DNA of 58,986 nucleotides, counting the filler, from Sluysia triapertura (taxonomy: Eukaryota), in assembly GCA_046118255.1 (NCBI GenBank). It is 4 parts of 4 records of this genome, joined end to end, with 100 filler letters (N's around TTAATTAATTAA, not from the genome) between each part and the next. Parts side by side here need not be neighbours in the genome. Positions count along the whole stretch, not along the records: positions 13,681 to 28,115 come from JBJNIA010259402.1; 3 more parts are not named here. The stretch is one strand, 5' to 3'. Below the pieces are notes generated by a model. It was not told the origin of the DNA and searched no databases. It was given only the letters and a program-made list of their open reading frames with translations. Below, piece after piece: positions 13,161 through 56,331 of the stretch (position 1 is the first letter of the stretch; every line of letters starts with the position of its first letter). Made by a program: the position numbers and the translations under genes.

Positions 13161-13470
13161 ACTTATTGTATTAGTACATGTATGAAGCTTATTATATTTT
13201 CACAAATAGTGCACTTATTACATGTACATGTCTATCATTTTGTATCAATTTCTCCTGCCCTTTTCAATTCTGCGTCTTCCTCACTCATTTCTTATTGAAC
13301 AATTGAGTAATCTTATCTTTTCATAAGCAGAAATTAATCTCGCAAACAACGAGTGGAACCTTAAATACTGTAATTCCCGCTTCCTGCATACAATGTATTA
13401 AGAATCTTACATCATATCAAACTTGTAAATCAGTTTTTAAAATTTATTTTAATCTCTACAAAAGCTGCTC

Positions 13471-13527
<57 letters not shown>
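13471..13527. repeat. (AAT)n followed by (ATT)n, a self-complementary microsatellite
   Basis: Direct reading; the triplet flips orientation at ~13506. Confidence 0.9.
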
Positions 13528-13580
13528 AATTGTTTAAACGATCCATCGCAGAAGATATAGCTAGAGCGTTTATTTAGCCA

Positions 13581-13680
13581 NNNNNNNNNNNNNNNNNNNN
13601 NNNNNNNNNNNNNNNNNNNNNNNNTTAATTAATTAANNNNNNNNNNNNNNNNNNNNNNNNNNNNNNNNNNNNNNNNNNNN
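13581..13680. other. Artificial scaffold-joining linker (44N-TTAATTAATTAA-44N)
   Basis: Exactly 100 nt with a six-frame stop linker; identical at three sites. Confidence 0.97.
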
Positions 13681-14380
13681 GTTGATATAAAAAGATCTAG
13701 AAATAACAACTGCAAAGTCGTAGTCAAACTGTCGCATCACGAAATGTGTTTTGATAATGACAACATAATATTAAATCTTATTAATTTAAAATTTAATTTA
13801 TCTATACCCTCCATACATTTATTAAAAGCAATAGGGAGAGTTTGAACCTTCTATAATAATAATAATTGTTATTATTAATTTTATCATAGTTTTACGAATA
13901 CAAATTAGAATTTTTGTCTTTGTTATGCCTTAAAAACATTATTGCTATTATTGTACTTAACTTTTAAAACGTTTTTGTGAATATAAATTAGAGTTTTTTT
14001 TGCCTTTTTGTTATAGTACATAGTAAAAATTAAACAACTGAAAGAATTGTGTAACAATAATAGTAATTAGGAGTAAGCCATAATATTGAAATTAATTAGA
14101 ATTACTGCCATGGATTTAGATTAGTGTGGGAAAATTAATATGAAGCTTGACTAAACCTATTAAAAAACTCGTGTGGTACTAAATAGATGCCTTAATAGAG
14201 CAATACCAAAACTTCCTACAGGTATGTCGTTTAGATTTCCAATTTAAATCGTAAATTGTAGATGAACCCTTCTTACTTATTTTGTAAGTTTAAGGAAAAG
14301 ATAAAATACTTGCAATTCTATCTGCTTCATCTTTAAACAAACCCAACTCAAATTGTTTTTATTTAAATTTATAAAATATC

Positions 14381-14605
14381 GCCCCTCTTAAAAATCTACA
14401 TCTAATTTATTAACAATACATGCAAATTATTACTCGCTCTAATCCAGTATACCAAATAATACATGCTCACTCTAGCCAATCAGAACGATCTAATACATAA
14501 TAAAAAATGTACAAATTAATACCAAATCAAAGTTTAATATAATAGACATTATAACCAATAAAACACTAAACTAAACAAGTGCGCGCGAGTAAACCAGAAA
14601 GTGGG
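14381..14605 (-). mobile_element. LTR-retrotransposon 3' UTR fragment ending in a polypurine-tract-like AAGAGGGGCGA
   Basis: Same family as 12995-13160; purine run at 14391-14381 on the minus strand. Confidence 0.4.
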
Positions 14606-14763
14606 TATGATTCAGCGAGAACATTTTTATCTACTTTTTGGAAAAGCTACATTGAATGACATGTGTTGCTGAAACATATTATTGGAAATCTTGCGATTTA
14701 AATTAACGGAAATAACACAAATAATCATTGTTTTAATTAGTTTTAAATGTGTAACCAAGGAAT

Positions 14764-14826
14764 TATGTATTATAGAATAATCTAGAATTGTGTATTATAG
14801 AATAATCTAGAATTGTGTATTATAGG
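14764..14826. repeat. 25-bp tandem duplication inside a dispersed repeat
   Basis: TGTATTATAGAATAATCTAGAATTG repeated ~2.4 times; flanking CAAGGAATTATGTAT...AAAATGATTTTCAC recurs at ~35425-35550. Confidence 0.8.
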
Positions 14827-15435
14827 ATACACTTGAAAAATATTTAGAATGAATCCATATAAAAGAAAGATTCAGAATCTCATATTTATTTAATCAAAAA
14901 ACGTATTTCGCATTAAAAAATGATTTTCACAAATTAGATATAATTTGTTGAGTTCGTGCTTCTTATGTCTGAAGATTTTATAAGACTATATTTTGGTTAT
15001 CGTTTAAACTTATACTTGTCTTAAATTCGTTTGAGTATATGTTTACTGTTGTGGTACAGCCATTCAACAACGATTGTATTACGTCATAAACACTACATAC
15101 ATACACACACAAACCAAATTTTGAATCCGCATAGTCATGAGATTTTTCAGCAATCTTTATATTGTTTTTTCCAAACACTAACCCTTAAAACAACGGATTC
15201 ATAAAACAACGAAATATTTTAAACTATTATTTTATTCACTAACATAAGTAGAAATTATTTGTATGTTTTTCAACTTCTAATTATCATATTTCATTATTAT
15301 AGCAAGCTACATCGTCATCATAGTGTCTACCTCTCTACACTTATATTTTAACATATGTTTACAAAGTTTTACTCTGTGGTATATAAATAGAGTCAAGTTG
15401 TCAAATAATTGAGATATAATTTATCTCATATTATA

Positions 15436-15900
15436 ATATGAGCTTCAAAGTACTTCAAACGAATTAACAGGAAAGAAACCCACTTCAAAAGAAGTAAATC
15501 ATTTAAAGTGTGCCTTATTGCAACACGAAGAAAACGGATATCAAGTCATTATGAAAGCATTTGATATTTCTTGTGGTACATTGTATTTTTATTGAATATT
15601 TAAAATCTGATGCTGCTAATTGAAGATGCAGCCATTAAAAAGTAGATTGAACAAAAATATTTAAACTTGGATTTTGTTATGATGAAGAAAAGAAAAATTT
15701 CACTGAAAAAATTGAAGACCTCGATGGACAATTAGAAATTTAGAATCGAAAATAATATTAGCTAATACCGAAAAGGTGAATTATTAAATTTATAAATTAA
15801 TTTCATGTAGGGCTTGGAATTTGAAATGCACCTAGATATGGAAGACTGGAACCACGAAGAAAATTATGGCACACACTTTATTGTTGTTCAGCAGGTTAAA
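15436..15900 (+). pseudogene. Degenerate unidentified gene with a 35-nt intron
   Basis: Protein-like frames with stops (ELTGKKPTSKEVNHLKCALLQHEENGYQVIMKAFD...), GT..AG at 15776-15810, then GLEFEMHLDMEDWNHEENYGTHFIVVQQ. Confidence 0.3.
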
Positions 15901-16663
15901 ATTTTGTTGCAGGACTTACAAAATGATGAAATACTGATTGATGTTTTGATATTTTCATTTGACTTATGTTCTTATACATCCATGGGATTCTGTAGTTTAA
16001 AATTTATAATAATGTATTTATTAAATATATACAAATATATTAATATTCAAATACATTAAATTATTCATTTTTATTCATTTATTAATTGTACATTTGAAAT
16101 TTTGTATAAAGTAAAATACCTTAAGCACTATAATAAAGAATTTCGTGCTAAGTTGATTATAAATCAATTTTTTAAATACAAAGAACGCCAATAACTAAAT
16201 TTACGTTGTCAAACAGTAGCTATATCGTGTATATCATAGAGAAACACAGGCGATATAAGTTTGATGCCCAAATGTCAAAAGTTGAAAACATAATATTACA
16301 TAAATTACGTTTAAAGTTTTATTTATTCTTATAAGAATACCACAGAGTTTGATTGGTTACATATTCCATGTTGCATTGTTTATTAATATTAAGTTTACAT
16401 GAATGTTTAATTCTATTTAAAAATAACCGCTACCATATAAGGTATTAATATTAATTTGTTTCCTTCTCTTAAATAAGTTTAAGTTACAATTTTCGGTTCA
16501 GATTTATTTCAATCCGAATGTCAATTAAACTCATTTTATTAAACACTAAATCATTATAATTTTCTATTATCTCAATATCAATGCTTAAAGTGGAAAAACA
16601 TATTCTTTACTTTAGAGGTCGAAATTTCCCAAGACAAATAAGAAACATGTTTAAAAAGTAATT

Positions 16664-16993
16664 TTAAAAGTCATAAAATAAATACCTGTTGGTAATAATG
16701 CGGCAACGAACCATAAAGTGCTTTGCGATATTTTCTTTAAGTTCCACCACCATCTTTTGCCATTGCTTTGAAACAAACTCACTTGTAAATTGTACACGAA
16801 TAATATTTCTGTGCGTAGTTATGTCGTAACAAATTACTGTTTGTCTATGTGTATGATTTACATTAAGGTCTAAACATTTGTCAACAACACTCGATACAAG
16901 TTGCGCAACAAATTCCATAACTCTGCATTTACCATTTGAAAAAAAACTAAATTCTAATCATTTAATATTTAATAATGCCGTTTCGGTTTCCAT
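16664..16993 (-). pseudogene. Unidentified ORF broken by one in-frame TGA
   Basis: METETALLNIK*LEFSFFSNGKCRV runs in frame into the 84-aa track ORF; TGA at 16960-16958; donor-like CAG|GTAT near 16685. Confidence 0.3.
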
Positions 16994-17599
16994 TGATTAA
17001 ATTTTTAATGACTAATATAATCTAATATGCGGCCTTTATAATAAATACTTGCTAATACAACATAACTACGACTGAATGATTATTTATATATGCACATTAA
17101 TGACTAAGTAACTTCTGTTTTATTTGTATGCATCTAAGGGGAGAAAAGTTCTTTTGTCCCTATGAGCACACTTTTTATTGACTCAAACACAAATCAAATC
17201 CGACTTTGCCAAAAGGTGCGGATGTTAAGGAGGATAAAGATCGCATATTATATGATGGTTATGAATATGAAAACTGAGTAATTGTTTAACATTTGAGGTA
17301 TTAATTAAGTTGTTTAGTCAATGTTTTATTTATTCATCGCTAAATACTAAAATAAACTTATCAACTACAAAATTGATATACTCATTCCAATCAACCGAAA
17401 CCCTTTTTATTAAAAAACAATTTCCATTTTGCTAACACCAAATAAAACTAGATAAATCAAGATCGTTTCCAGGAGGGAATAGAATGATGGTCTATTTATT
17501 AGGTTTATATCTTCCACTGTACAAAATGTAACCAAATTTGTTATTTTAATGTTTTTAAAATTGTTTAATTTTCACAATTTATTGGTTTATTTGATATCA

Positions 17600-18160
17600 T
17601 TATATTTATCTTATCATATCATATTTTATAATACTTATCCTTGCTCCAGTGTCCATTAAACCTGATCTACCGTGCCATTTATTATGATTTATTTTCAACT
17701 TAATACAAAATATGCAACTTTTACTAAATCTAACATTATGAACTTTAAAAGTATTATTTTAATATTGCCACTTTATCAAACATACATTTACAATCAATTT
17801 TGCTCTAACCTCGTCATTTTCAGAAACGTTTCTACAATTCTGTAGATTCATTTTTATTGCTTCTGCATAATTTATTGAATTATCTTTACTAATATAATAT
17901 GTTTCTGTAAGGTGAACCTAAATCTTTGTCTATCTGCAGATTATGAATACATTTTTCCCTGCATGTAACATTATCTTTATTCGAATCGTTGGCATTCACT
18001 TTCAAAACAAATGTCACATATTTTATTTGATGTTTCACGAGGTCAAATTCCTACTTTTTAGGATGATATCCAGCCGAATATTATTGAATATCGAAGCTAT
18101 GTGGTTTAAAAAATTTGTCTTTTTATGCATAATTAATTTCAACTTCCAAATATTTGTTTC
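17600..18160 (-). pseudogene. Degenerate LTR-retrotransposon gag-protease remnant
   Basis: GLMDTGARISIIKYD at ~17662-17618 is a retropepsin D-T-G-A active-site motif; upstream frame is protein-like with many stops. Confidence 0.6.
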
Positions 18161-18287
18161 TTAATAGTAAACTTTATTAAACATCATTAAGGATGGCAAA
18201 AAGAACTTCAAGTTACCTGGAATTGAAAATTTTATTATTATTTAAATTTCTACTACAATTTAAAATCAATTATATTATAAATTTAAA

Positions 18288-18653
18288 ATGAATATTACAT
18301 ACTGTGATGACAGTGGAATAAAAAGTACATATTTAAATGCCACAAAAAAAATACCGCCAGAATTATTAGCAAGACTAATGAAATCGGAAAGAAAATGTAC
18401 TAGAGAAATATTAAACGAAAAATTAAAAGTAGCTGAACAAAGGAAAGAAGTTTGTTTTTATTTTCAAATTATAAGTTTCAGTTTTAAAATATCAATAGTT
18501 TCATTAATAAAGTAAATATTTTTGTTCTAGTCCCTACAAAATATTCAGCGACAAAAAATCATTGAACACCATAATAAAGTAGATAAGTTGAAGAAAATGA
18601 AAGCATTTTACAAACAATATTCTGTAGTAGATTCTCCAGAAATTGAATATTAA
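18288..18653 (+). CDS. Stathmin-like small protein, 2 exons (18288-18449, 18531-18653), 94 aa
   Basis: Phase-0 81-nt GT..AG intron joins EILNEKLKVAEQRKE to SLQNIQRQKIIEHHNKVDKLKK, resembling stathmin LEEIQKKLEAAEERRKS; ends TAA. Confidence 0.7.
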
Positions 18654-20257
18654 GCTATATGTATAGTGAAAACATGTTATGATATTCATTGAATAGTGGA
18701 GATGTTAAAAAGACTTCAGTTTTTTTTTGAAATTTTAAAGAAATGTTTAAATGACTCTGTTTATTTTTTTTTGATTCAAAAATTATTTAAAAATTTTATT
18801 TTAAAATTATGCCAATAAGATCGAATGATATTTTTATTGTGCATTAAAATATTTTTAAATGTTTTAAGTTACATTATTACTCGGTTTTAGTTAAGTTTCT
18901 AATAAATTTGTTTCAAATTATTTAATTTTCTTTAATTATTTAGTTAAACGAACTTAATGAATAATTGATAATTTTATATATTTATATATTAATATGTATG
19001 CTGTGGTTTTTATTAAAATTTACGTCGAAACCTACGGCAAAATAGAAAATCGAGCAGGATTCGGTTTCAGTAAGCGTCTTACGTCATGAAGTAGGCACCA
19101 ATGCAGCAAAGTAAGTTAAACGAAGCAAAATAAATCGAACCTTTAATTTTATAGTAAGAGGGTCAACTAATTCTAAATGAATTGTAAAAAAATTTACAAT
19201 TTGGATGGATAAGTTATATAATAAGAATAGAATTTAAAGAAAGACATTGTATGATTGTAATATTAAAACTTCTAAAAGCATTTAATATCTTTAATTAATA
19301 ATTTACGTGTATTTTGCCCCTCAATATATCGGGGAACCTTAAGAATAAAGTTATTCGAAATTGATTTTAAGATATTATTTTCCTTAAATGAAAAAAAAAC
19401 AAATTACTTGAATCATGGAAGAAATTTGTGGAAATCTAATGATAATGTTGCCGCGAATTAAATATCTAACAAAATTAGCTAAACTGATGGCTTAACCGAT
19501 TTGAAAATGATTGATTTGAAATTAGCGAATTTACAAATGGCTGTACTGAAAATGGCGATTTTCATTGTATTGATGCTAGTGTATATACTAGTCACTAAAC
19601 AATTAAAACCGATGGAATGTTCTAGAAGCTTCTATGCTATTGTAATGACTAATCTAATCTATTTTGTGTGTAGTGGTTCATTTATTACTTATTTTTATTT
19701 GTGCTAATCATTTATGTGCTCTATTTATAATATTGATCTTTATGCTAAATTGTGGAATTTTGTAAAAAATTTTTAAAAAAAAAATAAGTATGTTTTTAAT
19801 TTTTATTGAAATTATTAAATTAAATTATTTTAAATTAAATTTTTAATAAAATTATTTTTGAATTAAATTATTAAGCTAATGAGATTAAGTTATTTAATTA
19901 AAAAATTTTATTTTATTAAATTTTTGTTTATCGAAATATACCTTTTGTTTTAATCTGACTTCAAGGTCAGATTAAACTACTATATATACATTTACAAAAT
20001 CACATCAAAAAATTTTGATTATAAATCCTCACAACAAATCTTTACTTAAAAGTCTAATTATTAACAGTTAAAGAAGAAAGTTTCTATTTCGGCGCTGACA
20101 TTTGAATAATTTTATTTGGATCACGTTAGCTTGATTTTTATTAAGATCAGATATTCGTAGAATATCAATAGTAAAATTTACTTAAATTTTTGAATTTTTA
20201 TTTGGATCGTAAATGATCTCAGACAAAATATCATTTTAAAAAATTTCTTTTTATATT

Positions 20258-20324
20258 TAATAATAATAATATATTAATTTATATTGCGCTTATATCTACC
20301 GCGAAAGTACTCAAAAGCGCTTAA
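20258..20324 (-). mobile_element. L2-LINE/SINE-type 3' tail fragment
   Basis: Minus strand AAGCGCTTTTGAG...AAGCGCAATATAAAT...(ATT)n resembles L2-clade 3' tails; near-identical copy at 39710-39779. Confidence 0.55.
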
Positions 20325-20649
20325 GGTAAACTAAGCGCTTATTGTAACTTTATTATTTTTATTATTAATTTCTTATCTATAATCATTGTTATAATAAAAC
20401 TTAAACTTGTGGTTTGAATTTTCCTTGCTATAGCTTTAAAATCATAAAATCAGTTTATTCCAAAGATTTCACATACTAGAAGTTAAGTCTAGTAAGTAAA
20501 CTATATTTTATTCGATTCCATATAACGGAATCTACGCAATATTCTCATTTAAACTTACTACAATTGATATTTAATTTACTTAAATTATCATTTACTTAAG
20601 TGTTAAGAAGAACTTTTGTAATCCAAGTTAAGCATCTTTTCTTACGATT

Positions 20650-20706
20650 AAAATCCAACGGCTGGCCTTCGCTGGTAAGCCCAGTACGTTGGTGAACTCA
20701 CGCTAA
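20650..20706 (+). ncRNA. Conserved 57-nt structured motif, copy A (candidate cis-acting RNA element)
   Basis: 51/57 identical to the reverse complement of 22377-22433; stems CCAACG/CGTTGG, CTGG/CCAG, GTG/CAC. The repeat is directly seen; RNA function is inferred. Confidence 0.55.
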
Positions 20707-22376
20707 GTTTTATTAAATTTATTCTACACTTTTCTTACATTATTAAAGCTGTATTACTGAATAAAGATGATGATGATGATGTTAGCATAAGCGAATGTGA
20801 CATTGTAGATGAAGAACATTACATCTTGTTATAATTGATTTAATTAAATATATTACATTATATATATTACATTGCTTATAAGTAATTATATATTATATTT
20901 TGATTTAATTTAATATATTATGGTGCGCCTTATTTATAAAAATATTTTAAACAAAGTTCATTTTTTAACTTTTATTGACGATAGAACGTTTATATTAATT
21001 GATAACTGTTTGCATATTTAAATAAATTTTATATAAATAAAGTTTCTTCATTGGATGAGAACATAAAATTGTATTTAGATAAGTTTAGTAGAAAGTTTCG
21101 ATGAAGCTATTAACTGAAATTCATTTAATGGTTCTAATTATGTTTGCTTGTAATTTATATCTTAAATTATTCATTTTTAGAAATGTTACATTTACTCAAA
21201 TAAATCATGAATTGTCAATTAACAAAAAAATATTTCACACATTTTAATAATTTTATTAAAGCACTTTCTATTGTTTTATTAAAAAGATCAATATGCGTTA
21301 TTTTGTTAGTTATCAGCTAAAAAAATGCTTACATTTATAAATAAATGTATACTTCGTTTATGTATCATTTCAAATAAAGTATTAATTTAAATAATTATAA
21401 GTCAGATTTTTAATTAAAAAAATTCATTCATTTCGTCTCATTAGCAATAATTTTAGATAAATTATTTTAAAATATAGAAATTATAAACGAATGTTTTGTG
21501 ATTAATTGAATAAAAAGTAATTTGAAATTTTGTTTTTTTAATGAAAATTATTACATACTTGGTAAAATATTTCGTTAATTCATCCATTTTTTGCAAAATT
21601 GTCGACTTTCTGAATAATTTTCAATTGTTGAAATATATAAATATTACACTAGATGAATTATAAGTCGATTCTTAATTTTAATCTATTAAAATATTTTTAT
21701 TTTAATTAAAGATTAATTAAAATGTATTTGTTTTAATATTTTAAATTTTGTTTTTATGTTTTACAAAAATGTTATTTTATAAGACATTTGTAGTAGTTTT
21801 ACTTTTAATATCATAAAACTTAAATACAATAAATAACAAGATAAATATTTAATAATTTTAAAAGACAAGTAGTGAAACTAAAATGAGGAAAGCTGTGTTA
21901 CAACAATTGAATTTTCATTTTAAATAATTCCTAAACATTTGTTTTCTTTAGGCAGTTTTGCAATAATCAATGAAGTGTATTTACTACTAAATTATTTAAT
22001 AGTTTGTTCTCCATATATGATCGTTAGATTAATTTATTTATCATTTATTTAGGCCTTAGTGGTTTTATTTAATACACTGATTATTATATATCTAAATTAA
22101 ATTAAATCAAAACTTATCATAATTCCTATTGCAATATTTAATTGTGAACGGTTATTTTTATTTTATTATATAGCTGTAATCAAACGCTGTACATAAAACT
22201 TAGTGAGTTTTAAGTAAATACATTGAAACTTTGAATAATCTTGGAGTGTAAATAGTGTTTCGTAGCAATTAATTTATTATTTTATAACCCATTATCCAAA
22301 TATTTTGGACTAATTTTTAAACAATGAAAATTATGGATATTGTGAGAAAAGTAATATAATAGAATATGGTTAAAGT

Positions 22377-22433
22377 TTAGCGTGAGTTCACCAACGTACT
22401 GGGCTTACTGGTTAGGGCCAGCCGCTGGATTTT
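22377..22433 (-). ncRNA. Conserved 57-nt structured motif, copy B
   Basis: Inverted copy of 20650-20706; an A>G change turns an A-U pair into G-U on the gag-sense strand. Confidence 0.55.
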
Positions 22434-24240
22434 GTAAATAAAAAAACCTTAAGTGATGCTTAAAAAGAAATGCTCCAGAACCTCAATACTTAATTATATT
22501 TTTAATTGTCTTGAGTTAAGTCAAATAATTTTAGTTAATTTATCAAAAATAATAACAATGTTAATAAGATGATTTTTCGTTTATTCCCTTAAATACATTT
22601 TACGTCGTTAGATTTAAATTCTAACTTTGGAAAGCTTTTCTAATAATCAATTTTATAGTTAAAGCTATATAAATTAAATTATAAGCAAAAATTGATTATC
22701 AATAATTTATTTTTAAAACTTTTAATCAAAGAATGTACAAAATGGTAAATGAAAAATAATAATTTGCACTAATTAACTCCTTGAGTTAATGGATAATATA
22801 AATGATTTTATTAAAGAATTTTACGTTGGATCTATTATAAGATCCTAAAATTATTATTATAATATTTTAAGTAGAAATTTACGTTGGATACACGAAGGTA
22901 TCAGGCCTTAAAATAATTAAACTAGCGTGATACAATAAAATTTGAAAAGAATTGATTGTCTCTGGAACCGTAATGGAGAAAAAACTTGCAATTAAAATTG
23001 TAAAGTTGAAAAACAAGACTTTTGAAAATAAAATTGTGTTTTGTTTCTAAAATTTGAACATATTTATATCTGTTCTTAATCCGACTTTCATCAGATTAAA
23101 ACAAATATTGAAAACAAATTTATTTCAAGTTAATTTAATTTTTTAAAATCATAATAAATTACTAAAATAAATATAATTAATAATAATGCATCAAAAATAA
23201 CTAAAATTACTTACATTTAATAATATAAAAATATACTATCCAAAAACGACAAATAATCAAATAATTCAAATAATTACAATATGAAATAATATAATAAATA
23301 AATGTATTAATAAGTATGTTAAAATAATCAATAAATGTATGATGTATCAACGAGTGTACTATTATCAGTGAGTGTGTTATATGTTACCAATGAGTGTGTT
23401 ACAATACTAACAACGAAAAATATCTATAAAACGGTTTAAATGTTAATATGATATAAAGAATCAAGAGACAACTTAGAAATTATTTTACCAGTGTTAATAG
23501 ATTGATTCTTGTTCCACCGATAAATTCATCGATAAATACATAAATCCGAATTCGCGAGGAGAAAAATATTTCCGACGCCAATCCAACTATTTCTATTGCC
23601 TATTTCCACAAGTTTTTTATCCTTTTTTAAAATATACGTATATTCACTAATAATTTTTGAACTAGTTCAATTTTTATTAGGTAATAAAGCCAACTATATT
23701 AGCTTTTATAAATTTTTCGTTGTTATAGTATACCTTATTCTTAAAATTCTTTCGATTAATTTATTCTTGCATTTTGATATTCTTATTCCTAAAATCAAGC
23801 TGTATTTAATAACTAAGATAATCTTAGCTTCAAAATATTTATTATTCTCATGTTGTAAGGGCGTAAAGTTTTATTTTTGTCTTATTTTTATGTTTTATAT
23901 TTTTTATTATTTATATTTAAAAATTTTCAAAATTGTAAATTATTATAAAAATTATTAAAAAATTATTATTATTTAAAAAATTATAAATAAAATTTAATTA
24001 TAAAAAATTTAAATTTAAAAGAATGTTCTGAATTAAAGAATTGTTTTTTATACTCACAAAAACTATAAAAACAAATAGCAGTAGAACCATCATTTTGACA
24101 ATTTCAGTTTACTGATATAGTCGCCATTTTAAATTTATCAGTCATATTAGTTTCAACAATCCATTCATTATTTCGATTCTCTTTGGCATTCGAACTGTAA
24201 AAACTTGATTGTTTTGATTGTTACACTTGACTTATTGTGT

Positions 24241-25402
24241 TCACTGTACATTGTTATTATTATTATTATAATTATCATTAAACCTTACTTTCCTATTTGG
24301 GCTTTGGTATTGACCCCTTACCTTATTAAAATCCTGAGTGAATACATTTTGTCTTAATTTCCTACAATCTCTTGCATAATGTCCTTTCTTATTACAGTTA
24401 TCACAGATTAATTCTCCATCTATATTAGTTTGAGTCTTATTATTATTTTTATCATATCTTATTGGACTTTTGCTCCTATTCCTATTAAAACTAGAACTTG
24501 GTGGCCATCTTGGTGCTTGTCTCTGTTCATAATTAGAAGCACCATAATTACTTGCTCTATTTTGGAATCCTCTATTATTATTATTATTTCCTCTATAATT
24601 ATTTGAGTTATCCATGTTATTGTTTGAACTGTTTCTTCTATAATTACTTGAATTTCGTCTAAGATTATTTCTATCATTACCTCTATAATTATTTGAATTG
24701 TTATTACTTCTGTAATTATTTGAATTATTATTGCCTCTGTGTGGGCTATTACGTCGTTCCTGGCTATAATTATAATCATTCTATTCTTCATAATTAGATC
24801 TATTATCATTATAATTATTTCTTGTCATTTTAGGGCTCTTATCCCCTTTTTCTTCGTTGTCACTTACATAATCAATATTATTCTTATTTTTCTTTTGCAT
24901 AATTGAGCGGTCAATGCTCCTTAATATTTTAATTACTTCCGTAAAAGGTTTTCCATCTATTAAATTGATATAAGTTATTAATTCAGGTCGCAATCCAGTT
25001 TTTAATTTATCTTTTAATGTTAATTTTCTATTAGCTTCTGGAATTTTGGCTCTAGCAACAAGGCTTTTAATAGCGCGAACATATTCATATACAGATTCGT
25101 TAGGTTTTTGTATTCTAGTATTAAGCTTTTTTGCATTAACAAATTCATTCCAGGTTTGCTTATTATTATCACTTATTTCCTTATATGTCTGGATAGCAAC
25201 TCCAGTTAGGTAATTTTGGATCCGTTTTATTTTCTCGGCTTCATTCCAGCCGTTAGCTTCTGCTATACTTTCGCATTCAAATAAGAAATCGCAGAGATCT
25301 TCCTCTGCACAGTTAAACTTTTCATTTCGGGTAAAGCATTATTGGACGCATTTCTCTGGCTAATTGTGCCATATAATCTTTAAATTCATTTGGTAAAGCC
25401 AT
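24241..25402 (-). pseudogene. gag: Ty3/gypsy Gag (capsid, Asn-rich spacer, CCHC knuckle), one frameshift and one internal stop
   Basis: FLFECESIAEANGWNEAEKIKRIQNYLTGVA, MHR-like RIQKPNESVYEYV, KTGLRPEL, zinc knuckle CDNCNKKGHYARDC; frameshift near 25325, TAG at 24783-24781 links two track ORFs in the same frame. Confidence 0.9.
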
Positions 25403-28115
25403 GTAGTTCCTTAACTTTGATATGTAATCTTCTGAAAGTACTAATTGCTTATCTATTTTTCTTAAAGTTTACTAAATTTTCACGTTCCTTTTTTCAAAAT
25501 TTTCAAATAAAGAGTTCTCGAGCAAAATGTGTAGAATCCGTTGTAAAACGCGTAACCACACGTGCAACAATAAGAACACCGTGTAATATTAAATTAATTA
25601 ATCATAATGAGATTCCTATGTCGATAGCAGTACTGTCTTTAAAATATGAATATCAAAGACTAGTTAAAATTTTAAATTTGAATTCACGTGAATTAAAGAC
25701 TAAACGAGTATATTCTTGTGATGTTTTGCAAGAAAAGACTAATATTTTAATGAAACAAGCCTTTGGATGGTTCATGTGTCAGTTAGAAGACACGATACGA
25801 TTATATTTTATTTAGAGTCGTTTAAATTATTGATATTTAGTATAGATGCGTTTGATAACATCGAAGAATTGGTAACTTTGTTGTTCATGAGGCAAGAAAA
25901 TCGGTCAGAAAATATTTCAAAACCTATATTACAAACATACTTCATCACATACGAACATTTTGTACATTAACAAAACACTAAATAAACTACTTGACTCATT
26001 CAAAAGCAAACATAATTATCATGAGTTATGGTTATTGTTATCATGAACTCCATTGTAATAATAATTATAATAATTTCATATAATAATTCTTACAATAATA
26101 TCATAATACCATCAACACCATCATATTAAAATGTATAATAATTCCATTATAAATTTATTCCTATCATTGTTATCATTATGATTTCTGTTATTTTCACAAT
26201 TAATATTCTTTTTATTCTTTTTGTTTGTATGAATTTTTATATATTTATGTTTGTGTTGTTATTATTCACATTTTATTGCTTATAACTTTCTTTCTAACCC
26301 TCTTTCCTCAACTTTCTGGTGTTGAAATTATTGAATATATTATTCGCTTAGAACGATAACACAATTTGCTACTATTACAATTACTATAATCATTATTACT
26401 GTTACTATATTATTATTACTTCTACATTATTTTAAGATGTTGGAAAATAACTATATTTTCATAAATTCTGGTGACAGTAAAATAATAGATTAGAATACTG
26501 AAGTTAAAAAGTATCTTATTCATGTTGAATGATAACAAATTATATACTATTATTAAAATTATTATTATTATCATGTTTATTTTACTTTTAATTTTTAATT
26601 AAATTTTAACTGCTTAAAATAATCAGTTGCTAAAATTTAATTAAAATTATGTCTATTATTATTGTAATCACTGTTACTATTATTATTACTACAATTATTA
26701 TTAGTGTAAATACTACTACCATTACTACTATTACTACCAGTACTACTACTAAAGTAATACGATTACCACGACCGCTATTGCCACGACATATAAAATTATA
26801 AATAAAAATTATAATTTCAAGTCTATGATGAAATCTAACCAAGCAAGTACACAAAAATTTGAAACAAGTAAACTCCAAGCTGATTCACCAGATAATACTA
26901 TATTTATCAAGTATCCAAGATTAATCGTCGCGCTCTTTCAAATCCAGTTTTGATGTATAATCGAGATTTAGATGAATATAAAAATTCTCTTCATCGAAAT
27001 GATAGAAGTGAATTAAATGGTAATTATAAAGATTCTGCAAGAAAGTTAATAAATATGAATCTGAATGACTACATCTAATCACGAGTAATATCTGAAAATA
27101 CTGAAATATCTGAATGATTCATGGAAAAAATTCACGAATTTGAAACATCACTTGAAACTCAAAGTCTCGAATCTAAGGGAACAGAACCAATTATTCAATT
27201 AGCTATCGATGCTACAAAAAAGCAACAACAACATATCTTGGTATCATATTCTTGGCGACATTATTGAAGACATTGCAGCTAATATGAGTATAAATGAACT
27301 AAAAAACAAATTCAAGTATCTGAAAGATCTAATCCGTCAATGATATTATTGCTAAAATTTTTGGAATATTAAGGGTCGCGATATTATTAATTTTTACTTT
27401 TTATTTATTGTTGAATAATAAAAGTTTATGAAATTTTGTTGATTTGATGTTTGTAAAATTTAGTTTTGTTTTTATATGCCTTAAGCCTATGTTGTTTAAT
27501 AATTTATTAATAGTTAAAAATTTAATGTTTTAAATTGTTTGTTTAGTATATTAGCCAAAATCTCAATTACGAATAAATTTATAAAGTTATATAGTTTCAA
27601 ATGGTAATAAAGCTGTGTTGCCGGAAACGTCGCTGATTGCCGAAGTTTGATTTTCTATGTTGGAATGGGTCTCTTACCTAATGTAGTGTTTATTATTTAT
27701 CTGCTTATGGTATTATCATTTTTATTTCGCCAATTCGTGCAATATATAAGGACTTTTTGTGATTATATGATTAAGGATTTGAAGTCAACTTTTAGAAAGA
27801 TAAATGTTTTAATAGTTTCTAAATTTAATAATTCTTAATCAAATTAATAAAGTTCTAAATATAAAAACATTAAATAAGAATTATAATAAAAATAATATTT
27901 TAATAAACTTATTTTAATAAATAATATTTTAAGAAACTTATTTTCTTGGTTTTAGTAAATAAGTTAAGCTAGTGGTTAAGACCTAGCGTAAAATTCTGAA
28001 ATTTTAAGTTTTTTAATTAAAATAAGAACGTTTAGAAAACTTAAATAAACAAATTTACTTTTGCATGGATTTTCTAAAATGTTCGAATAAATTTTCATTG
28101 ATTAATAAATTTTGC

Positions 28116-30904: not shown

Positions 30905-33075
30905 ATCTACTGTTACTAGTGCCACTGGCTCGTCTACTGCAGGGGCGCTTAATAGACCAACTAACACTTCTATCCCAAACAGGACTAACACTATATCGAC
31001 TACATCGACTTCATATTCGACTGTGCCTACTCGGACTTCGCAAAATCAAGTTTGTTGTTACATTTCGATGAATTTACAAATTATGTATTTACAAATTTAT
31101 TATTTAAATGTTTATTGGATTTCAACTGTACTTTTCTAATCACGAGAAACATTTCAATCTATTATATTTGTGTGAGTCGATATTTCTTATTTCTGTCGTA
31201 TTGTCTCTTTTTTTCAGACTTCATTTCCGACACCTCGAGCAGCTTATCCAAGTGCGCCAACTTCCCCTACACGTTCTGCGAGTTCATCTTTTGCAGCTCC
31301 AGTCGTGGAGAGTATAACTGGTCAAATATCGAGTACCTTGTCCAGAGGTATATTCGGTGGAGGATCTAATTCTAGTTACAAATCTGGACAGGGTAAATCA
31401 AAATGTAAAATTATACTTATAATCGATGAACCTCACATTGATTGGTTAGATCCTTTTATAGCTTTATGTATTTTAAAAAAGTTCAAGTAAATGTTAATAT
31501 ATACCTCATTAATTAAATTTAATTACGGTTACCATGGAATAAATTTGTAAACAATATAATTCGAAATTTCTCATACTTCTTTTGTAAATCATCGCTATAG
31601 AAAATAATGAGTCACAGAAGCGAATTTCAATTAGGAGTTATTTTTTGTGATGCGATTCTGATTCTGCAGATGCCCTTGCACTGGAAATTTCCATTTCGAT
31701 AGCACAGCATTCGTATACGTCGCGATACTCAGTGTTTATAACTGAATATTTATGAGTTTTGAATAAATCGAATTTGTCTGGAAAAAGAAAATTTGGTAAA
31801 TATTCATTTTCTATTTCAATAAAACCCAAATAATAATGCTTTAAAAGGTCTAGGATACACATGCAATTCAGAATTTTCCATTGTGAGAAAAACTTCAAGA
31901 TGGATCATGCTATTTTCTAAGATGCGATTGGAAAACGCCCAAGATTGTCAAGGTCTACAAGAAATGCTGCAATCGTGGTACAGATGGTGATCTTACAGAT
32001 TCATCTAGTCGCTATGTTACTTGATTCACAGTTTGAGGATCACAGTGCTAAGAGATATTGTATGACTGTGTTTAGAATAAATTGTTTTATTTTTAATGCT
32101 GCATCACGTATTACGAATTCAGTGCAAAATCGATCAGAAGAAAATAAGATTCTGAATTAAGCAGAACTTTCAATGAGTATTTTTCAATGAGAACTTTCAA
32201 TGTCTTTATTTTTTAATGTTCGTATTGTGGATAAAATCGTAAATATATTGAATTGGTGCATAAGTTCAATAATAGGGTTTTTACAATTACGAAAAATGCA
32301 TACTGATCAAGAATAAAAAACATGCTAAAAAATTCCAGATAACAAAATGAATTTATTAAATCATTAGAAAAACAAATATTTGAGTTACAATGGTGAGATA
32401 CTCTCCGCCACAATCGATCACTTCATTCCACCGTTCTGACAGTGTCAGTCCCACATTTGAAGAAGCGTGGTGATTTTTGTGTTGTTCGTTCACTGACTGC
32501 CTTTTCTCCATAAACGCAACAAATCATTTTGGTGGCTTCTGCAGTGTTTAAATGTTGATTAAAATAGAAAAGGAGTAGATGCCTGAAATGTTCATTTTTA
32601 TCTCCCGGACACTCCATTTTAATGAGGGTAATGAAAGTGAAAGTTAGGCTAAAATGATTTAAATAGATAATTCAGCTGAATGAATATAACTCAAATCAGT
32701 TAAAGCAAGAAGTAGGTGTGTTTTCTTCGCAACAAATAAAACCGCACGAATTTATGCACCAACCCAATAATATTGATTTTCTCTCTAATTTCACAGGCCT
32801 CATTAAACTCCAATCGGAGGTTGATAACGTAGAAACACCAAATAAATAGATTGCTATGATTCTTAAGAGTTAGGATATGTACAAATATTTGGTTATAACA
32901 AATTCGGGTTATGCTTTGAATCAAAAGGACTTATAAGTGACATCATCTATCAGTCTCGATCTAAAATTAAATTAGTAACAAAAATTGTATTGGAAATATA
33001 AATTAAATTAATAATAAAAGTAATTATAGAAATTAATAATATAGAATTAATAAAATTTATAATATATTTATTGAA

Positions 33076-33113
<38 letters not shown>

Positions 33114-36100
33114 AATAATAATGATAATAATTGTAGTAAAGATGACGCATGAACAAATCGCTTACGACAATAAAGATGGTAGTGAGACACTGTCGTATAT
33201 ATTTAATAATATAAATATAAACGTCGTTATATTTAATAATAATAAATCAATATCGGAAAATTTACTTAATAAAATCTCAATAATTTTGTTAATCACTTAA
33301 TCCAATATAAAAGTATCAGAAATTTTCTTATTCTGATGGTAATATTTATTCAACCCAAAAATTAAATTCTTAATTTATTGATTACAAAAATCAAATACAA
33401 ATTGTTATTATAAGTCTCCACTGAACAAAAATAAAAATGACTAAAAAAGATTAACAATAATGGTTATAATAATAATAATAATCTATCTCAAAAACTAGAG
33501 GTGACACAAACACAAAAAATGTCAATATCCAGAAAATTTCAAATAGTCATAATACTTAAATATTTTCAGATAATTTTTAACCTAACTTAATGACGATTAA
33601 ATATTATAAAAAAATTTGGACAGGAATCCTCCCTACTATTTAAGAGTAATGCCTGAATTAAAAAATAAAATATTTAAAATTTCTTAAAATAAATTGAATA
33701 GGGAGTCTCCTACAAGACTAACCTAGGAACAGCCAAAAATCAAAACTAATATTTTAAAAACAAATTGAGTAGGGTGTCTCCCACAAAACAAAAATAAACT
33801 AAATAGAATTTCCCCCAAAAATAATAAAATAATAATAATAAAAACACTATTAAAATAATAAAATCAAAAAATAAAATATTTAATTCTTACCAAAAGCATG
33901 GATCTTCTAATGATTATAACTTAATTGTGCACTTGTGTTTTGTATTTTGTGTTAAAATTTTTCATTTTATACTCTCATAATCCAATCAATCCTAGATTTC
34001 ACAATCAAGCACTTTCTCACACAAATCATCAAAACCTCTTTGATAATTATACCTATAATTACATTATACATACTGTCAAACTTCTTTAGGTACAAAACAC
34101 AAAAATTTGATTTAGTATCAACCATCATTTTCTTTTACTCAATCTATATTCACTTAAATTACCTCCTCCCATTAAAATATCAATCAACAACAAAAATAAT
34201 AAAATAAAAATAATGAATTTAATTTCTCTTTTTAGAATTTAATTGATTTCCGATTTTTCACACCCAATTTTCTAATGAAAAATGTTTTAAGGTTCTTATT
34301 CTCAAACAAACCATTCTACAAATGTATGGATTCATCTCATATTCAATTCATTTCATTTGCATCATTCTAAGTATAAAAAATTCAGCATTTCTTAATTAAA
34401 AATTAATTAAAATTTGACTTTGTTCAATATTAAGGTTTTCCTTGCATGAACTCTGTCGAACCTTACCTTCATCAAAAAGTTTTTTCAAAACAAATACATA
34501 CACAATTTCAAATTCAACATAGTATTCCGCATTCAAAAGTTATTCACAAATAAGTTGATTTTTCTTAATTAAGTTAAGATTTTAATTAATTAATCTATTT
34601 TTAGACTTAATCTTCTTTTGTTTAAAGGTTTTATTAAGGTTTTAAAATTGTGTAGTAGTTTATAAAGCATTCAGGAGGCTCTAGATGTTTTCACCTTCTG
34701 ATTCCTTTTTCCAACTCTTCATGTTAATTATTACCATATTAAACTTATCTTTATTTTGAACAAAGATTTTATTTTTCAAAGATTTTAAAGATTTTAAACA
34801 TTACTTGAAGATCCCAAATGCCTATCAAGTTTTTAAGAATATCTAAAGTTTAATAAGGTCTTAGATGATCTCAAGCCTGATAAGCTCAAAGGTACACTAA
34901 TGACTTCAAAGGTATTCGAAGTTTATTTCAAGCTTCTACGAGGTCTCGACACCTAATATAGGTCTTTGGAATGCAAAGGTATTCTTCAACTCTCAACTGA
35001 ACTATGGTTATTTCCATCTTCGTCACTTTTTACTCCAACAATGCTTTATTGTTTCTGTTCATCATTTTGTATTAATTCTTCATACATTTGTAATTTCATG
35101 CGTTTCCCATCCATCATCTGTTCCACAGTTGGGCAATCTCAACATATGCACGATATTTTAGACAACATATGAGAAGGCTGTGTTTTATTTCATTAATGTA
35201 TAATTGATTTAATGTACAATTTAATGTACAATTGTTTTAATGTATAAATTGATGAAAGTACATTTGGTAATTAACTTAATTAGATTAATTAAAATGTGTT
35301 TTGTAAAATAATTTTGAATTAAAGTGATATGTTATGGAATAGCTGTACATTGAATGAAAGATGAAACACATTATTAAGTTAACGGAATAGGCAAGAAATT
35401 TTTTTAATTAATTTGAAGTGTTAACAAGGAATTATGTATAAAAGAATAATCGGATAAGCTAGAAACTCATGCAGAACAAATCCTTGTGAAGGAGCAATTT
35501 AATCTAAAAGCGTAGCGTTGATCTATTCTGCATCGAAAATGATTTTCACGTGATAGAAAATTATAGGAGAAAAATTTTAATATTTTTCTGGATATTAAAG
35601 TTTTGGTTAATTGTTAATTAACTATTTTGATTTATCCTTAAATTTTTATTCGTGACAATTGATATTTTGTTAATTTATATTCATTGTGAAAAGTGATAAA
35701 TTACATTAATAGTGATACAGAGAATATTTGTGAATTTAAATCTTAGTTTGATTTTCTGAGTTAAATTAAACAAATAAAATATCAATAATAGAAGATTGAA
35801 TAATTAACAAATCAGAATTATTTAATCGAGTTCGGCACCAGGTCGAATTACAAATATGAATGATGATAGTATTTTTCAGGTCCAAGTACTTCCGGGGACG
35901 AAGAATTTTTGGAGATTGGGAAATTCGAATCGAGCAAGCCCAATTTGGGGAGATAAATTTAGTGGGCTTCAGTGAAATGGGCTGTACAATTGACGTGCAG
36001 ATGGACAAATCAGGGACGAAGACGATGCGGTTAGTGGGATTCAAATATTTGTCAATTTCTTGATAAATTTTTATGAATAACATTTAATTATATTGATCAG

Positions 36101-38927: not shown

Positions 38928-39709
38928 GTATGTTTCGATTCCATGTTGTTAGGTTATTAGATTAAGGTTGTAAAAACAAATTTGGGTGTGAATTTCCAAT
39001 TCATCCTCATTCATTCATTCATCCTCTTTATGTATTTAAATTAACAAAAATAATTCTGCAACACAAAGAAATGAGTCTCAATTTCAATATATTCTAAACT
39101 TTACAGCAAAGTGTATAACAATACAAATAAGTCTTTATATTACAATTAATTTTTCTTCAATATAAATGAATCTTTTTACAACAACCAAATATAACTCAAA
39201 AATAAATCAGTCTTATGAAAATACACATCAATTATAAAACCCACTTCCAGAGCTGACACAACGTACATAAATGTTAGTACCCAAATAACAATAAATTAAT
39301 GAGAATAACTCAAGGTCAACTAAAATTCAAGGTCCACGAATAATTCAACTAAAAGTACGACTACGAAAGAGATAGGAGATTAAATCAGTGTTTGCTACTA
39401 CTGCGATAGGAGAGAATACCAAAATGTGTTTCTTTACATTTGTTGTTACTATCACCGCTATTGTTCGTATTATCATTGTTTTTATCTATTCAAAATCACT
39501 ACAGTTTACTTTCTTATCCATCACGGAATACCAAAAGTCATCGGATATAAAGTCACATCCCATTACAAACTTGGATGAACACCACCTAATTTGAGTACCA
39601 ACACAACATCTGTACGGTCTACACTAATTATTTGTACATCAAGTACTAGAAATAAAATGGCACATTTTTCGTAACATCAACATAAAAATGATAAAAATTA
39701 AAAATATTG

Positions 39710-39779
39710 TAATGATAATAATATATTAATTTATATTGCGCTCATATCTACTGCAAAGTAAGTACTCAAAAGCGCTTAA
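39710..39779 (-). mobile_element. L2-LINE/SINE-type 3' tail fragment, second copy
   Basis: Near-identical to 20258-20324. Confidence 0.55.
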
Positions 39780-39792
39780 AATAAATCATTCA

Positions 39793-50265: not shown

Positions 50266-52710
50266 AATGATGACACTATTGCATGACAATATGGGAAAAC
50301 TAAGCATTAGAAATTTGGATGCACGGTTAAGTCGACTCAGTTGTGAAATATATACATCAAATATTTGTAAGGTTTCCATTTGCTGAGTTTTTGCGAACTG
50401 CGTATTGAATGAAGCAACAAAAATCATTTCGTTGCCTGGAACCTTGATGTTTTAAAAATAATTGAAAAATTAACCATTTTTATTAGATCGGTATCTAAAA
50501 TCTGATTGGTTTATGTTCCTCATTTTTTATTGGTAATTTTCTTTATTATTATTATTATTATTATTATTATTTCATTTTTTTAATTACAATATTAAAGTCA
50601 TTATACTAAATAAATGTGTTATGATTTTAAATATTTATTTTTATGGTACTCGGTAACTCTATTCGTCGCAGGGTTGCTGCATAACATTTCATTTTAACCA
50701 ATGAACATTATTGTATGCTTTACGTTGCTAGTGTTGAAGCTAGTATAAATATTGGACTTATTAAATTTGATTGGCGGAATTTTCTGTAGTGTATGATCTA
50801 GGGTTTTGAAGCGCCGGACAAAACAAAATTGGGAGCCCTTTCATACAAGAACACACAAATTTACTGCGAATTTAAAAAAATAGTAAAGAAGGCAAAAAAT
50901 CAAAATTACACAATAAAGAACTGTGTAAAAATTAAAAAATGGTACAATAGTAATTTACTTGCAAGCGATACAACATATGGAATAACAACGAGCGCATCTG
51001 AAGTTTGGGCGACGAAGTAGAGTTAGAACTTTGAAAAGTAAGTTATGCTATTCCTGTTGCATACGTATTTGTCAAAAATTCAATACATAATTAATTAAAT
51101 TAATTTTTTGAAAAACAGTTTACAATATTAAAATAATTAGCGCGTCGTGACCTTCGTTTGGTATTATTAAAGAAAGAAATTTATTGCTTGCTAAAAAATC
51201 GGTGTCTCATGAAAAATGATCGATTTTAATTTATAAAATCTAAAAAATAATGAATGTAAAAAAATATTTTATTTTTATATCGGCGCCACGTTCAGTCCGC
51301 CCAGCTTGGCCGTCCCTTTATGTGAGCTAATTAAGTACTAAACAATTTCGATAACGTAGCATTTTTAGCAGAGTTCAGTTACAGTATACGATGTACAATA
51401 TCGATTAATGCACAATTTCTTGTAGCTTACTATTCTGTCTATTGTGTCTACTTTAAAATTATTAACAATAACAAAATTGTTTGAAATCTCGACATATTTC
51501 CAATAATCCAGTAGTAATTTAGGAGAAAATAAGTCAGATAGATTACTAGAAAATAATGGTTGATGATTAATTGTTCGCTTTCCTAGTTTAAACAGTTATG
51601 AAAGTTAAAAAACAAAAATGAGTTCGCCTACGTAATGCGGTTTATCTTAAAAAAGGACTCGTTCGTAGGATTTAATCGACGTAAAAGCTTAATAAAGAGG
51701 GTCACTATACTTCGAAATTACTTTTCACAATTAATAATATATCAAATATTTCTATATGTTATTTAATCTTATTCTATGAAGTCCTTTGATAAAATACTGT
51801 GTGAAGGAATTCTTAACACTTTCGGAGTAATGAGAGTTAATTTAAATTCTTAATTCTCTATTCAATTAATTAAATTCAGACCGATTTTAATTTTATACTT
51901 TCTAATCGGTTTTGATTTTATATTTTACTTTATAAACTTTGCAAATCTTCAAAAGGTGTTTAAATTTAGTTCCACGGCCATCGAAATCATCATCCAGCTT
52001 GCACGGCTCTCGCATTTTTCTTTCTTATTCTAAAGAACTCTCTCTTCCAAAATTTTAAGTTATTAATAAATCTATTATAACATTTTTTGTTGTCTTAGTT
52101 TAAATGTAAAATTTAATAATACATTTATAATCATTAATAAAATTAAACTAGATTTTGAAAAAAATTTTAAACATTTTTTGGTCATATTTTTAATTGATAA
52201 ACGAATAATTTTTCCATTAAATATAACTTTAATATATCTATCAAAACGAAACAGATGCTTTTAATACGTTATTAATTATTACAACTTACAAATATCAATA
52301 TTTACATAGAACCGCAATTATTTGCGTTAAAACCTTACTTAAATAGTAAAATAATTAATTTTTACTAAACTTTAAAATTAGTTTGCTTTAAAGTTTTTAA
52401 TACTAAAATCCATTATCAATCTGAATCAGTTATAAGAAACAATAATAAATGATTCTAAATAACTAAATATATATATCTGGAAGTTACAAGCACATTCCAA
52501 CGAATGAAAATTTGCTTTCTGAATTATTTAATGTTTAAATTGTGCAAAGTCATCAAAGAAATACAAATTTTATTAATATTTGAAAATCATCGAATTAAGG
52601 AAAAATATTCGTAATTTCGAATATGGGAAGTCAAGTTCCAAATGAATTGCAGTTACTCAAACCGAATTCAGAACGAAAAATTATCGAAATATCTGTAAAA
52701 ATATCTTAAT

Positions 52711-55989: not shown

Positions 55990-56104
55990 AAATTGTTAGA
56001 CGAGACTAATATTTAAGTGGTCAGAGTATCGAAATGCGCAGGTGTAAAGCGAGAGGTCCTTAGCTCGATTCCCGGACAGTCCATTTTATGAAATCTAACA
56101 TTAG
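55990..56104 (+). mobile_element. Degenerate copy of the tRNA-derived repeat
   Basis: GTTAGACG...CCCGGACAGTCCATTTTATGAAATCTAACATTAG parallels 56250-56352. Confidence 0.7.
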
Positions 56105-56259
56105 TATCCAAACAACAATAAAAACTCAAGTCATTTATAAATAAATTTTAGTCAGTTTACTAAAGAATTATGAGATTCAATCAGTGTTTGTCTTGGAGTA
56201 GAAAGGCCTAAAAGTGCCATTTGGTAAAATTGACTATAATAAAATAAAATCGTTAGACG

Positions 56260-56331
56260 GGGCTGATAGCTCAGTGGTAGAGCATTCGAACTGCGCAGCG
56301 AAAGTCCCGGGTTCGATCTCCGGTCAGTCCA
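56260..56331 (+). tRNA. tRNA-like gene (Ala/Cys-type body, abnormal anticodon arm); probably SINE-like rather than a decoder
   Basis: Acceptor GGGCTGA/TCAGTCC, D arm GCTC/GAGC, T arm CCGGG-TTCGATC-TCCGG, discriminator A, TTTT at 56332-56335; anticodon arm TTCG/CGAA around 10 nt. Confidence 0.55.

Follow-up and report, generated by a model that had tools for sequence, protein, structure and literature searches.

Several groups of non-autonomous retroelements invite comparison with the locus described here. In plants, TR-GAG and GAG-PROT-only LTR elements are non-autonomous and are defined as families with terminal repeats (PMC13570524). In animals, HeT-A of Drosophila is an element with gag and without pol (PMC4467039), and the mammalian MaLR are called non-autonomous in two papers (PMC1331978; PMC4724089). 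The Troyka LTR retrotransposons, which have non-autonomous members, are characterised by a CX2CX8-10HX4C knuckle and by LTRs of 100-400 bp with CG ends (PMC12440569). Moreover, the order GAG-ENV-POL is reported for elements of nematodes, bryozoans and flatworms (PMC13524379). A literature search with narrow phrases returned little on gag-only LTR families of animals, which does not imply their absence from print.

The DNA analysed here, called the window, is a stretch of 58,986 nucleotides from Sluysia triapertura (GCA_046118255.1). It holds a gag gene followed by a tail (copy B, minus strand), part of which recurs on the plus strand (copy A). With Ty3/gypsy elements (Metaviridae) and their deleted derivatives, the locus shares a capsid-fold Gag, a CX2CX4HX4C knuckle, repetition and a CA-ended tail; it is unlike them in having no pol, and an LTR pair, PBS, PPT and TSD were not found here. 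Like the plant TR-GAG and GAG-PROT-only elements, it keeps Gag and lacks enzymes, but it was met at one locus, as one dead copy without protease in an animal. The Troyka elements also have a gypsy-like Gag, whereas the spacing CX2CX4HX4C sets the window's knuckle apart from theirs. The GAG-ENV-POL errantiviruses with an HSV/gB-type Env are alike in that no protease comes next to Gag, and the window has a hydrophobic stretch after gag. However, the locus has neither an env ectodomain nor pol, and in the Gag tree the window's Gag falls at an open fork, with no placement among these env-carrying elements. The window's element could be a deleted derivative of a GAG-ENV-POL errantivirus. MaLR, which carry a gag-like ORF, and HeT-A are animal retroelements mobilised in trans. 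They differ from the window's element in that HeT-A belongs to the telomeric non-LTR elements and MaLR to ERV class III.

Table 1 Features of the gag locus and of related fragments in the window
Feature	Position	Strand	Remarks
Gag scrap, end of capsid domain	3487..3589	+	another scaffold; 51.2 vs 28.5
5' part of copy A	19029..19334	+	recurs as two blocks at 54587-55061, with no match in B
74-codon hydrophobic open frame in A	19483..19704	+	no Pfam match
Copy A, shared region	19900..20739	+	terminal CA at 20739
GC-rich motif of copy A	20654..20706	+	32 identical nt shared with copy B; no Rfam family
Copy B, shared non-coding region	22341..23240	-	terminal CA at 22341
GC-rich motif of copy B	22377..22430	-	11-bp stem, one G-U pair where A has A-U
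AT-rich stretch	23240..24010	-	no coding remnant detected, no significant homolog in window
77 codons in gag frame	24010..24240	-	three stops and hydrophobic stretch, KD15 3.24
Decayed Ty3/gypsy-type gag	24241..25402	-	ATG at 25402, stop at 24241; capsid, N/R/S-rich linker, one CX2CX4HX4C knuckle
Likely 5' leader, repeated	25403..25972	-	upstream of gag; no LTR match, no convincing PBS
Piece matching A 20258-20330	39710..39785	+	adjoins scaffold end; absent from the sequence-only reading
Third, diverged motif copy	51619..51713	-	outer stem kept, one two-sided change; nothing matching upstream

A decayed gag gene without pol

The gag gene (Table 1) is genuine and encodes a capsid fold and one CCHC knuckle. 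In Pfam, zf-CCHC scores above its cut-off (23.9 vs 20.8 bits) and Retrotrans_gag below its own (19.7 vs 24.1, E 0.001); the PDB matches listed for a structure model of the Gag are capsid domains throughout, none of them at E<=0.001. The sequence-only reading had described a near-intact gypsy Gag that makes its own capsid. A capsid-like gag is indeed present, but it carries three lesions: a frameshift near 25336, an in-frame gap of 15 residues near 25135 within the capsid, which is unique to the window's Gag in an alignment of 16 sequences, and a stop at 24781-24783. A normal capsid protein cannot come from this copy. A hand tally of differences from other copies (30 in gag among the 40 listed, with 201 further ones beyond that list) gave an even spread of 10, 9 and 11 over codon positions 1, 2 and 3, as in neutral decay. 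With three lesions and even decay, the window's copy is neither unbroken nor under purifying selection.

The Gag belongs to an unnamed lineage that is very abundant in the host, and its best database relatives share 29-43% identity with it. A profile search with the Gag gave six hits. In the 200 candidates of 200-639 aa, the word-indexed protein search found no match at E<=0.001; the 6110 candidates of 1979-5000 aa gave none either, which is weak evidence. Matches to PPR proteins were dismissed as spurious repeats. Loci of the relatives were not found in viral contigs; the only one in metagenome contigs is cut inside gag, so it has no downstream sequence.

That gag is not followed by pol, as first read from the sequence, is confirmed by Pfam in the sense frames, which detected neither pol nor env after gag. 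With stops read as X, 22300-24240 and 19020-20780 gave no family at E<=0.05 in any of their three sense frames, and the 196 ORFs of at least 48 aa that were scanned across the window had no match to RT, RNase H, integrase or env. A pol in the order PR-RT-RH-IN is absent at the locus, so the superfamily Ty3/gypsy is assigned from Gag alone, and no env matched there after gag. Gag itself turns up twice in the same ORF scan.

Among ten distant relatives with a tail of at least 150 aa after the last knuckle, a Pfam protease follows Gag in P0002 only; the other nine lack it, so a gag with no pol directly behind it is nothing unusual in this group. In the relative P0011 (30% identity), Gag runs into a Monjiviricetes_fusion domain, which makes it a Gag-Env fusion. 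The frame that follows gag in the window is possibly a signal-peptide or membrane-anchor stub, to judge from its hydrophobicity; a KD15 of 2.9 was reached by 11 of 348 control blocks. At the gag locus, where the 5' end of the element is undefined, the search gave no convincing polypurine tract or PBS and no target-site duplication, and the tail has no direct-repeat partner on the scaffold that would make up paired LTRs. We therefore infer the LTR identity of the tail.

A tail shared by two copies

The alignment of 19797-20743 (+) with 23238-22337 (-) scores 106, compared with 23.5+-2.2 in 12 shuffles. The copies have about 0.85 kb in common, with 70% identity over 700 aligned columns and 169 gap columns besides. 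Their homology stops at the same terminal CA, where 11 of the 12 last bases agree, and this common terminus resembles an LTR end; going by its sequence, copy B is likely the 3' part of an LTR. Copy A had been taken for a diverged collinear copy over 19020-20780 (+), which is true of the shared part, but A has no gag and 19020-19800 is not collinear. Indeed, 19000-19800 does not match the post-gag or upstream DNA of B (scores reached by 18-99 of 100 shuffles), and its score with gag was reached by 4 of 100 shuffles. The 74-codon frame of A is not significantly similar to the post-gag frame of B (571 of 2000 shuffles reach the score), nor did the ORF align with the signal-peptide-like tail of the relative P0030. 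The possibility that A and B are inverted terminal repeats of one DNA transposon was rejected because their best-kept parts face inward and their identity is 70%.

Gag and the structured tail occur together at one locus only; the remaining tail copies are without gag, and the other gag scrap is without tail. Of the proposed gag-only family, what stands is a gag without pol, a repeated family and a conserved terminal motif, but not a recurrent union of gag and tail. The further fragments assigned to it fared unevenly. The one at 51600-51920 contains the diverged motif (51619-51713, score 36.7 vs a null maximum of 24.0), but nothing upstream of that motif matches. The one at 54587-54880 matches the 5' part of A (54587-54651 vs 19029-19096, score 45.0 vs 26.1), but is no copy of B. 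A possible fragment at 2100-3500 came down to the gag scrap, while 2100-3480 is not a copy of the 3' region, and 10920-11580 gave no match at z>4, its best comparison being reached by 4 of 100 shuffles. A weak match of 27619-27673 to the 5' part of A (z 5.0) was not recovered by profile and was discarded.

The terminal motif and RNA structure

The block of 32 identical nucleotides spans 20675-20706 in A and 22408-22377 in B. A second shared hairpin lies at 19950-19975 in A (z -4.7) and has a counterpart in B (z -5.3); only these two hairpins are clearly shared, and in both of them a G-U change permits pairing on the gag-sense strand only. Beyond them, the hairpin arrays through which the element was proposed to recognise its RNA lack statistical support. 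Windows with z<-2 number 5 of 20 in the shared region of A and 4 of 21 in that of B, compared with 20 of 220 in five control stretches, and 155 of the 242 base pairs of A can form in B (null 148.8+-6.6; reached by 39 of 200 permutations). Overall pairing is conserved no better than chance.

In the tail region, no Rfam family or known ribozyme matched at the gathering score of its covariance model, all hits being sub-threshold. A covariance model and DNA profiles built from the three motifs found no further copies, and the 18-nt motif had 0 matches in viral contigs. A 15-nt form gave at least 120 matches; a tRNA was present in none of the 60 checked among the 80 listed, and the matches are ascribed to chance. 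By-eye fits of the motif to twister, HDV-like and pistol ribozymes and to a Helitron end also failed.

Depth and variants in public sequencing runs

In run X1, 24101 of a depth of 24174 differs from the window at the gag stop, and 2254 of 2776 at the frameshift; contigs of run X3 lose their fit to the window at 25132-25136, the site of the 15-residue gap. The summed depth in X1 amounts to 21,000-263,000 over gag (24290-25459), 1,200-17,500 upstream of it and 142-788 just after it (24030-24289), and single long pieces have a depth of 9-21, with one single contig at 3384. The drop of about 100-1000x right after gag hints that most gag copies continue into sequence other than the B-type tail; it is only a hint because depth in a run does not measure copy number, some records are lost to filters and the repeats at 24244-24285 were passed over. 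B-type sequence at 24107 is present in five contigs of X1, all with a letter other than that of the window, and the post-gag part is thus not unique. The summed depth of these contigs is 136, as compared to about 20 for single pieces. The same variants recur in runs X2 and X3 (shares 0.06 and 0.05), where depth is far lower; these runs need not be independent of X1, and their lack of cover at 24030-24224 proves nothing.

Origin of the locus

On balance, the locus is probably an old, internally deleted and decayed copy of a highly repeated Ty3/gypsy element, with a tail that is likely an LTR end. The three gag lesions, the even decay over codon positions, the drop in depth after gag, the common CA end and the missing protease in nine of the ten long-tailed relatives speak for such a copy; the five B-type contigs, the failure to find paired LTRs and the ORF scan, with gag twice and no enzyme or env, speak against it. 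A full-length parent would have formed particles from Gag, packaged its RNA in them and used its own Pol for reverse transcription. The present copy may have lost the internal genes when reverse transcription jumped between templates, or in a deletion that followed insertion; a few rounds of copying in trans perhaps came next, before the deleted copy decayed. On this view, copy A and the motif at 51619-51713 would be what is left of LTRs from sister subfamilies. Selection in active ancestors would have kept the 32-nt block, which may act close to the end of the LTR as a cis signal in integrase recognition, strand transfer or the formation of 3' ends.

The missing pol and env, both after gag and among the 196 ORFs, would also suit a genuinely non-autonomous subfamily: one that has retained gag, perhaps together with a short membrane anchor, that depends on Pol supplied in trans and whose cis signal is the terminal hairpin. 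The window would then hold one dead member. The five B-type contigs with their summed depth, the G-U changes that pair on the gag-sense strand only and the outer stem of the third motif, kept through a two-sided change, point in this direction. However, gag and tail were seen together once, A is without gag, the window's gag has decayed neutrally, depth is far lower after gag than on it and overall pairing does not exceed chance; we regard such a subfamily as rather unlikely. If gag and the structured tail were different repeats, a truncated gag beside a non-coding repeat family in a transposon nest, this would agree with the 0.8-1 kb or so that separates the shared region from the gag stop and has no match in the window, with the motif occurring twice without gag, with the gag scrap at 3487 lacking the motif and with the region upstream in B, which, unlike in an LTR pair, does not match the tail. 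Both lie on the same strand less than 2 kb apart, however, a coincidence that we put at about 5% given three motif copies in 59 kb (clustering ignored), and two separate repeats are clearly improbable. Hardly probable at all is that the 32-nt block joins the end of an LTR to a tRNA PBS, with the tails of A and B as 5' LTRs of other truncated elements. The identical block does end 17 nt past TGG, about the length of a PBS, and one tRNA-Arg end listed in supplement 1 of PMC13524379 agrees with the complement in its last 7 nt, in a comparison confined to tRNA ends of other organisms. Yet no CA directly precedes the TGG, the third copy has AGG there, no gag follows the block in either copy and the homology extends 33 nt further, to the CA end.

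As it stands, the decayed copy is an ordinary retrotransposon remnant. It is quite unlikely that the locus represents an invertebrate satellite subfamily from a GAG-ENV-POL gypsy lineage that has lost env and pol but kept gag and a membrane-anchor stub, and whose packaging and copying in trans go through a conserved terminal RNA hairpin of no described RNA family. If the subfamily that keeps gag were real, it would extend parasitism of the TR-GAG type to an invertebrate gypsy lineage and would offer a candidate for a short RNA signal, acting in packaging or strand transfer, that is open to direct probing.

Gag gene and downstream sequence

The gag gene, which lies on piece 13681-28115 of the four scaffold pieces separated by N spacers (GC content of the window about 25%), is broken (see table). 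In Pfam searches, zf-CCHC scored above and Retrotrans_gag below the cut-off. A search of 1.84 billion representatives yielded 25 matches at E<=0.001, of which 17 contain Retrotrans_gag at E<=0.001 and two are spurious PPR proteins. The AlphaFold model of the Gag (pLDDT 74.8) weakly resembles the capsid domains of MOAP1, HERV-K, RSV, PNMA2 and HIV (best E 0.014).

Features of the gag locus and other features of the window
Feature	Position	Strand	Remarks
gag	ATG 25402 to stop 24241	-	capsid domain, N/R/S-rich linker, one CX2CX4HX4C knuckle
gag lesion 1	near 25336	-	frameshift
gag lesion 2	near 25135	-	in-frame 15-residue gap; same gap in 0/15 aligned relatives
gag lesion 3	24781-24783	-	stop codon
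Tail B	22341-23240	-	non-coding, shared with A
Facing copy A	19900-20739	+	region shared with B
Inverted repeat	206-414 / 817-1025		209 nt, 91% identity; a 279-aa frame (694-1533) overlaps it
Three similar short hairpins	2860-3210	+	one bulged A each; z -2.9, -1.1, -3.0; 280 nt upstream of a gag scrap; matching neither A nor B
Mariner/Mos1 scrap	32426-32671	-	transposase HTH
Synapsin N-domain exons	35860-36060; 38655-38957	+	two separate exons covering overlapping profile parts; perhaps a tandem duplication
Long frame	52714-54318	-	535 aa, uninterrupted; no Pfam match at E<=0.1
tRNA-like repeat	56260-56331		Rfam tRNA, 49 bits; likely a tRNA-derived SINE; look-alikes 4560-4637, 7443-7622, 55967-56107

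The gag frame extends for 77 codons past its stop, with three further stops and a hydrophobic stretch, which is suggestive only, because 11 of 348 control blocks also reach a KD15 of at least 2.9. Reading 22300-24240 and A in all three sense frames revealed no Pfam family, and no match to protease or env was found after gag with the relatives P0002 and P0011 as queries. Of 255 ORFs in total, 214 were listed and 18 overlapping known frames were omitted; none of the remaining 196 (at least 48 aa, with enough complexity) encodes RT, RNase H, integrase or env. The synapsin exons point to an animal as the source of the window.

The conserved end of the tail

About 0.85 kb is common to A and B (70% identity over aligned columns). 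Both terminate at ...CA (20739; 22341) and agree in 11 of the 12 final bases, beyond which their flanks are unrelated. A 32-nt block is identical in both, which, given the 70% background, amounts to strong local constraint (by our own estimate, <1% by chance). The sequence-only reading had described A as a diverged collinear copy. Upstream of 19800, however, DNA alignment and protein search revealed neither a match to B nor a gag, and the 5' part of A recurs at 54587-55061. Thus, A is related to the tail of B and is no collinear gag-only copy. Similarity between the 74-codon hydrophobic frame of A and the post-gag frame of B is not significant (571/2000 shuffles, 53/348 control blocks), and the fragment proposed at 10920-11580 did not match.

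A and B have two hairpins in common at corresponding alignment positions, one at 19950-19975 in A (z -4.7 and -5.3 for the two copies) and the stem of the GC-rich motif (z -1.8 and -0.8). In each, one change leaves a G-U pair that can form only on the gag-sense strand. In a third motif at 51619-51713, the outer stem is kept with a two-sided change. One conserved terminal element is real, but the "hairpin arrays" were overstated, since only two hairpins are shared, pair conservation over the whole A/B region is not above chance (155/242 kept; 39 of 200 permutations reach 155) and Rfam has no family for it.

Relatives and further copies

A Pfam protease is present in one (P0002) of the ten relatives with at least 150 aa after the last knuckle, which include two near-duplicate pairs. 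P0011 is a Gag running in frame into a gB-type fusion/envelope domain (E 6e-19). In P0030, the knuckle is followed by a stretch resembling a signal peptide, without Pfam support. The long post-knuckle tails of P0014 and P0021 are partly alignable, without a convincing Pfam match. As the Gag falls in an open fork of a tree of 26 capsid regions (P0030, being too short, near-duplicates and PPR matches were left out), its possible derivation from elements with env counts as a lead and not as a result. Membership in Troyka was ruled out by knuckle spacing, CX2CX8-10HX4C there (PMC12440569) as against CX2CX4HX4C here.

Contigs from three public runs (X1-X3) were aligned to 24030-25972, and 5507 contigs of X1 fit. 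The gag is highly repeated in the host: summed depth in X1, which is no copy number, was 21,000-263,000 over gag, 1,200-17,500 upstream and 142-788 over the 260 nt after gag (records filtered; repeats at 24244-24285 skipped), as compared to a depth of 9-21 on single long pieces. These depths hint that most gag copies continue with sequence <80% like B's. At the stop codon the window disagrees with nearly all of the X1 depth, and at the frameshift with most of it. Those differences that are listed for gag number 30 and fall 10/9/11 on codon positions by hand count (40 differences shown, 201 not shown), so this copy decayed without selection. The same gag variants occur in X1-X3, runs labelled as different organisms, with depths in X2 and X3 only a few thousandths of that in X1; the three may be non-independent.

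Origin of the locus

A broken gag, no enzymes, a repeated gag and a repeated tail with a conserved end were observed. We lean towards a deleted Ty3/gypsy copy, now inert, whose tail would be an LTR end. Five X1 contigs with B-type sequence at 24107, none sharing the window's letter, argue against a one-off event. An LTR pair, PBS, PPT and TSD were searched for at the locus and none was found; that the shared block is an LTR end plus PBS seems very improbable. It is also unlikely, though less so, that gag and tail are chance neighbours.

A real gag-keeping subfamily is a possibility of some weight, well short of a deleted copy. The gag without pol, the repeated gag and the conserved tail end agree with the gag-only system of the sequence-only reading, but the gag of this copy is broken and decayed without selection. 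Overall, the observation of that reading was confirmed in part and its interpretation supported in part, with family-level claims drawn from the window together with a single public run and distantly related database sequences. Pol-less retroelements are already a known kind, as with the TR-GAG and GAG/PROT-only families of plants (PMC13570524), HeT-A (PMC4467039) and MaLR (PMC1331978, PMC4724089). A GAG-ENV-POL order is reported for nematodes, bryozoans and flatworms (PMC13524379); six words searched in the supplements of that paper turned up no Gag sequences. Given this order and relatives mostly lacking a protease, a gag not followed by pol requires no new system.
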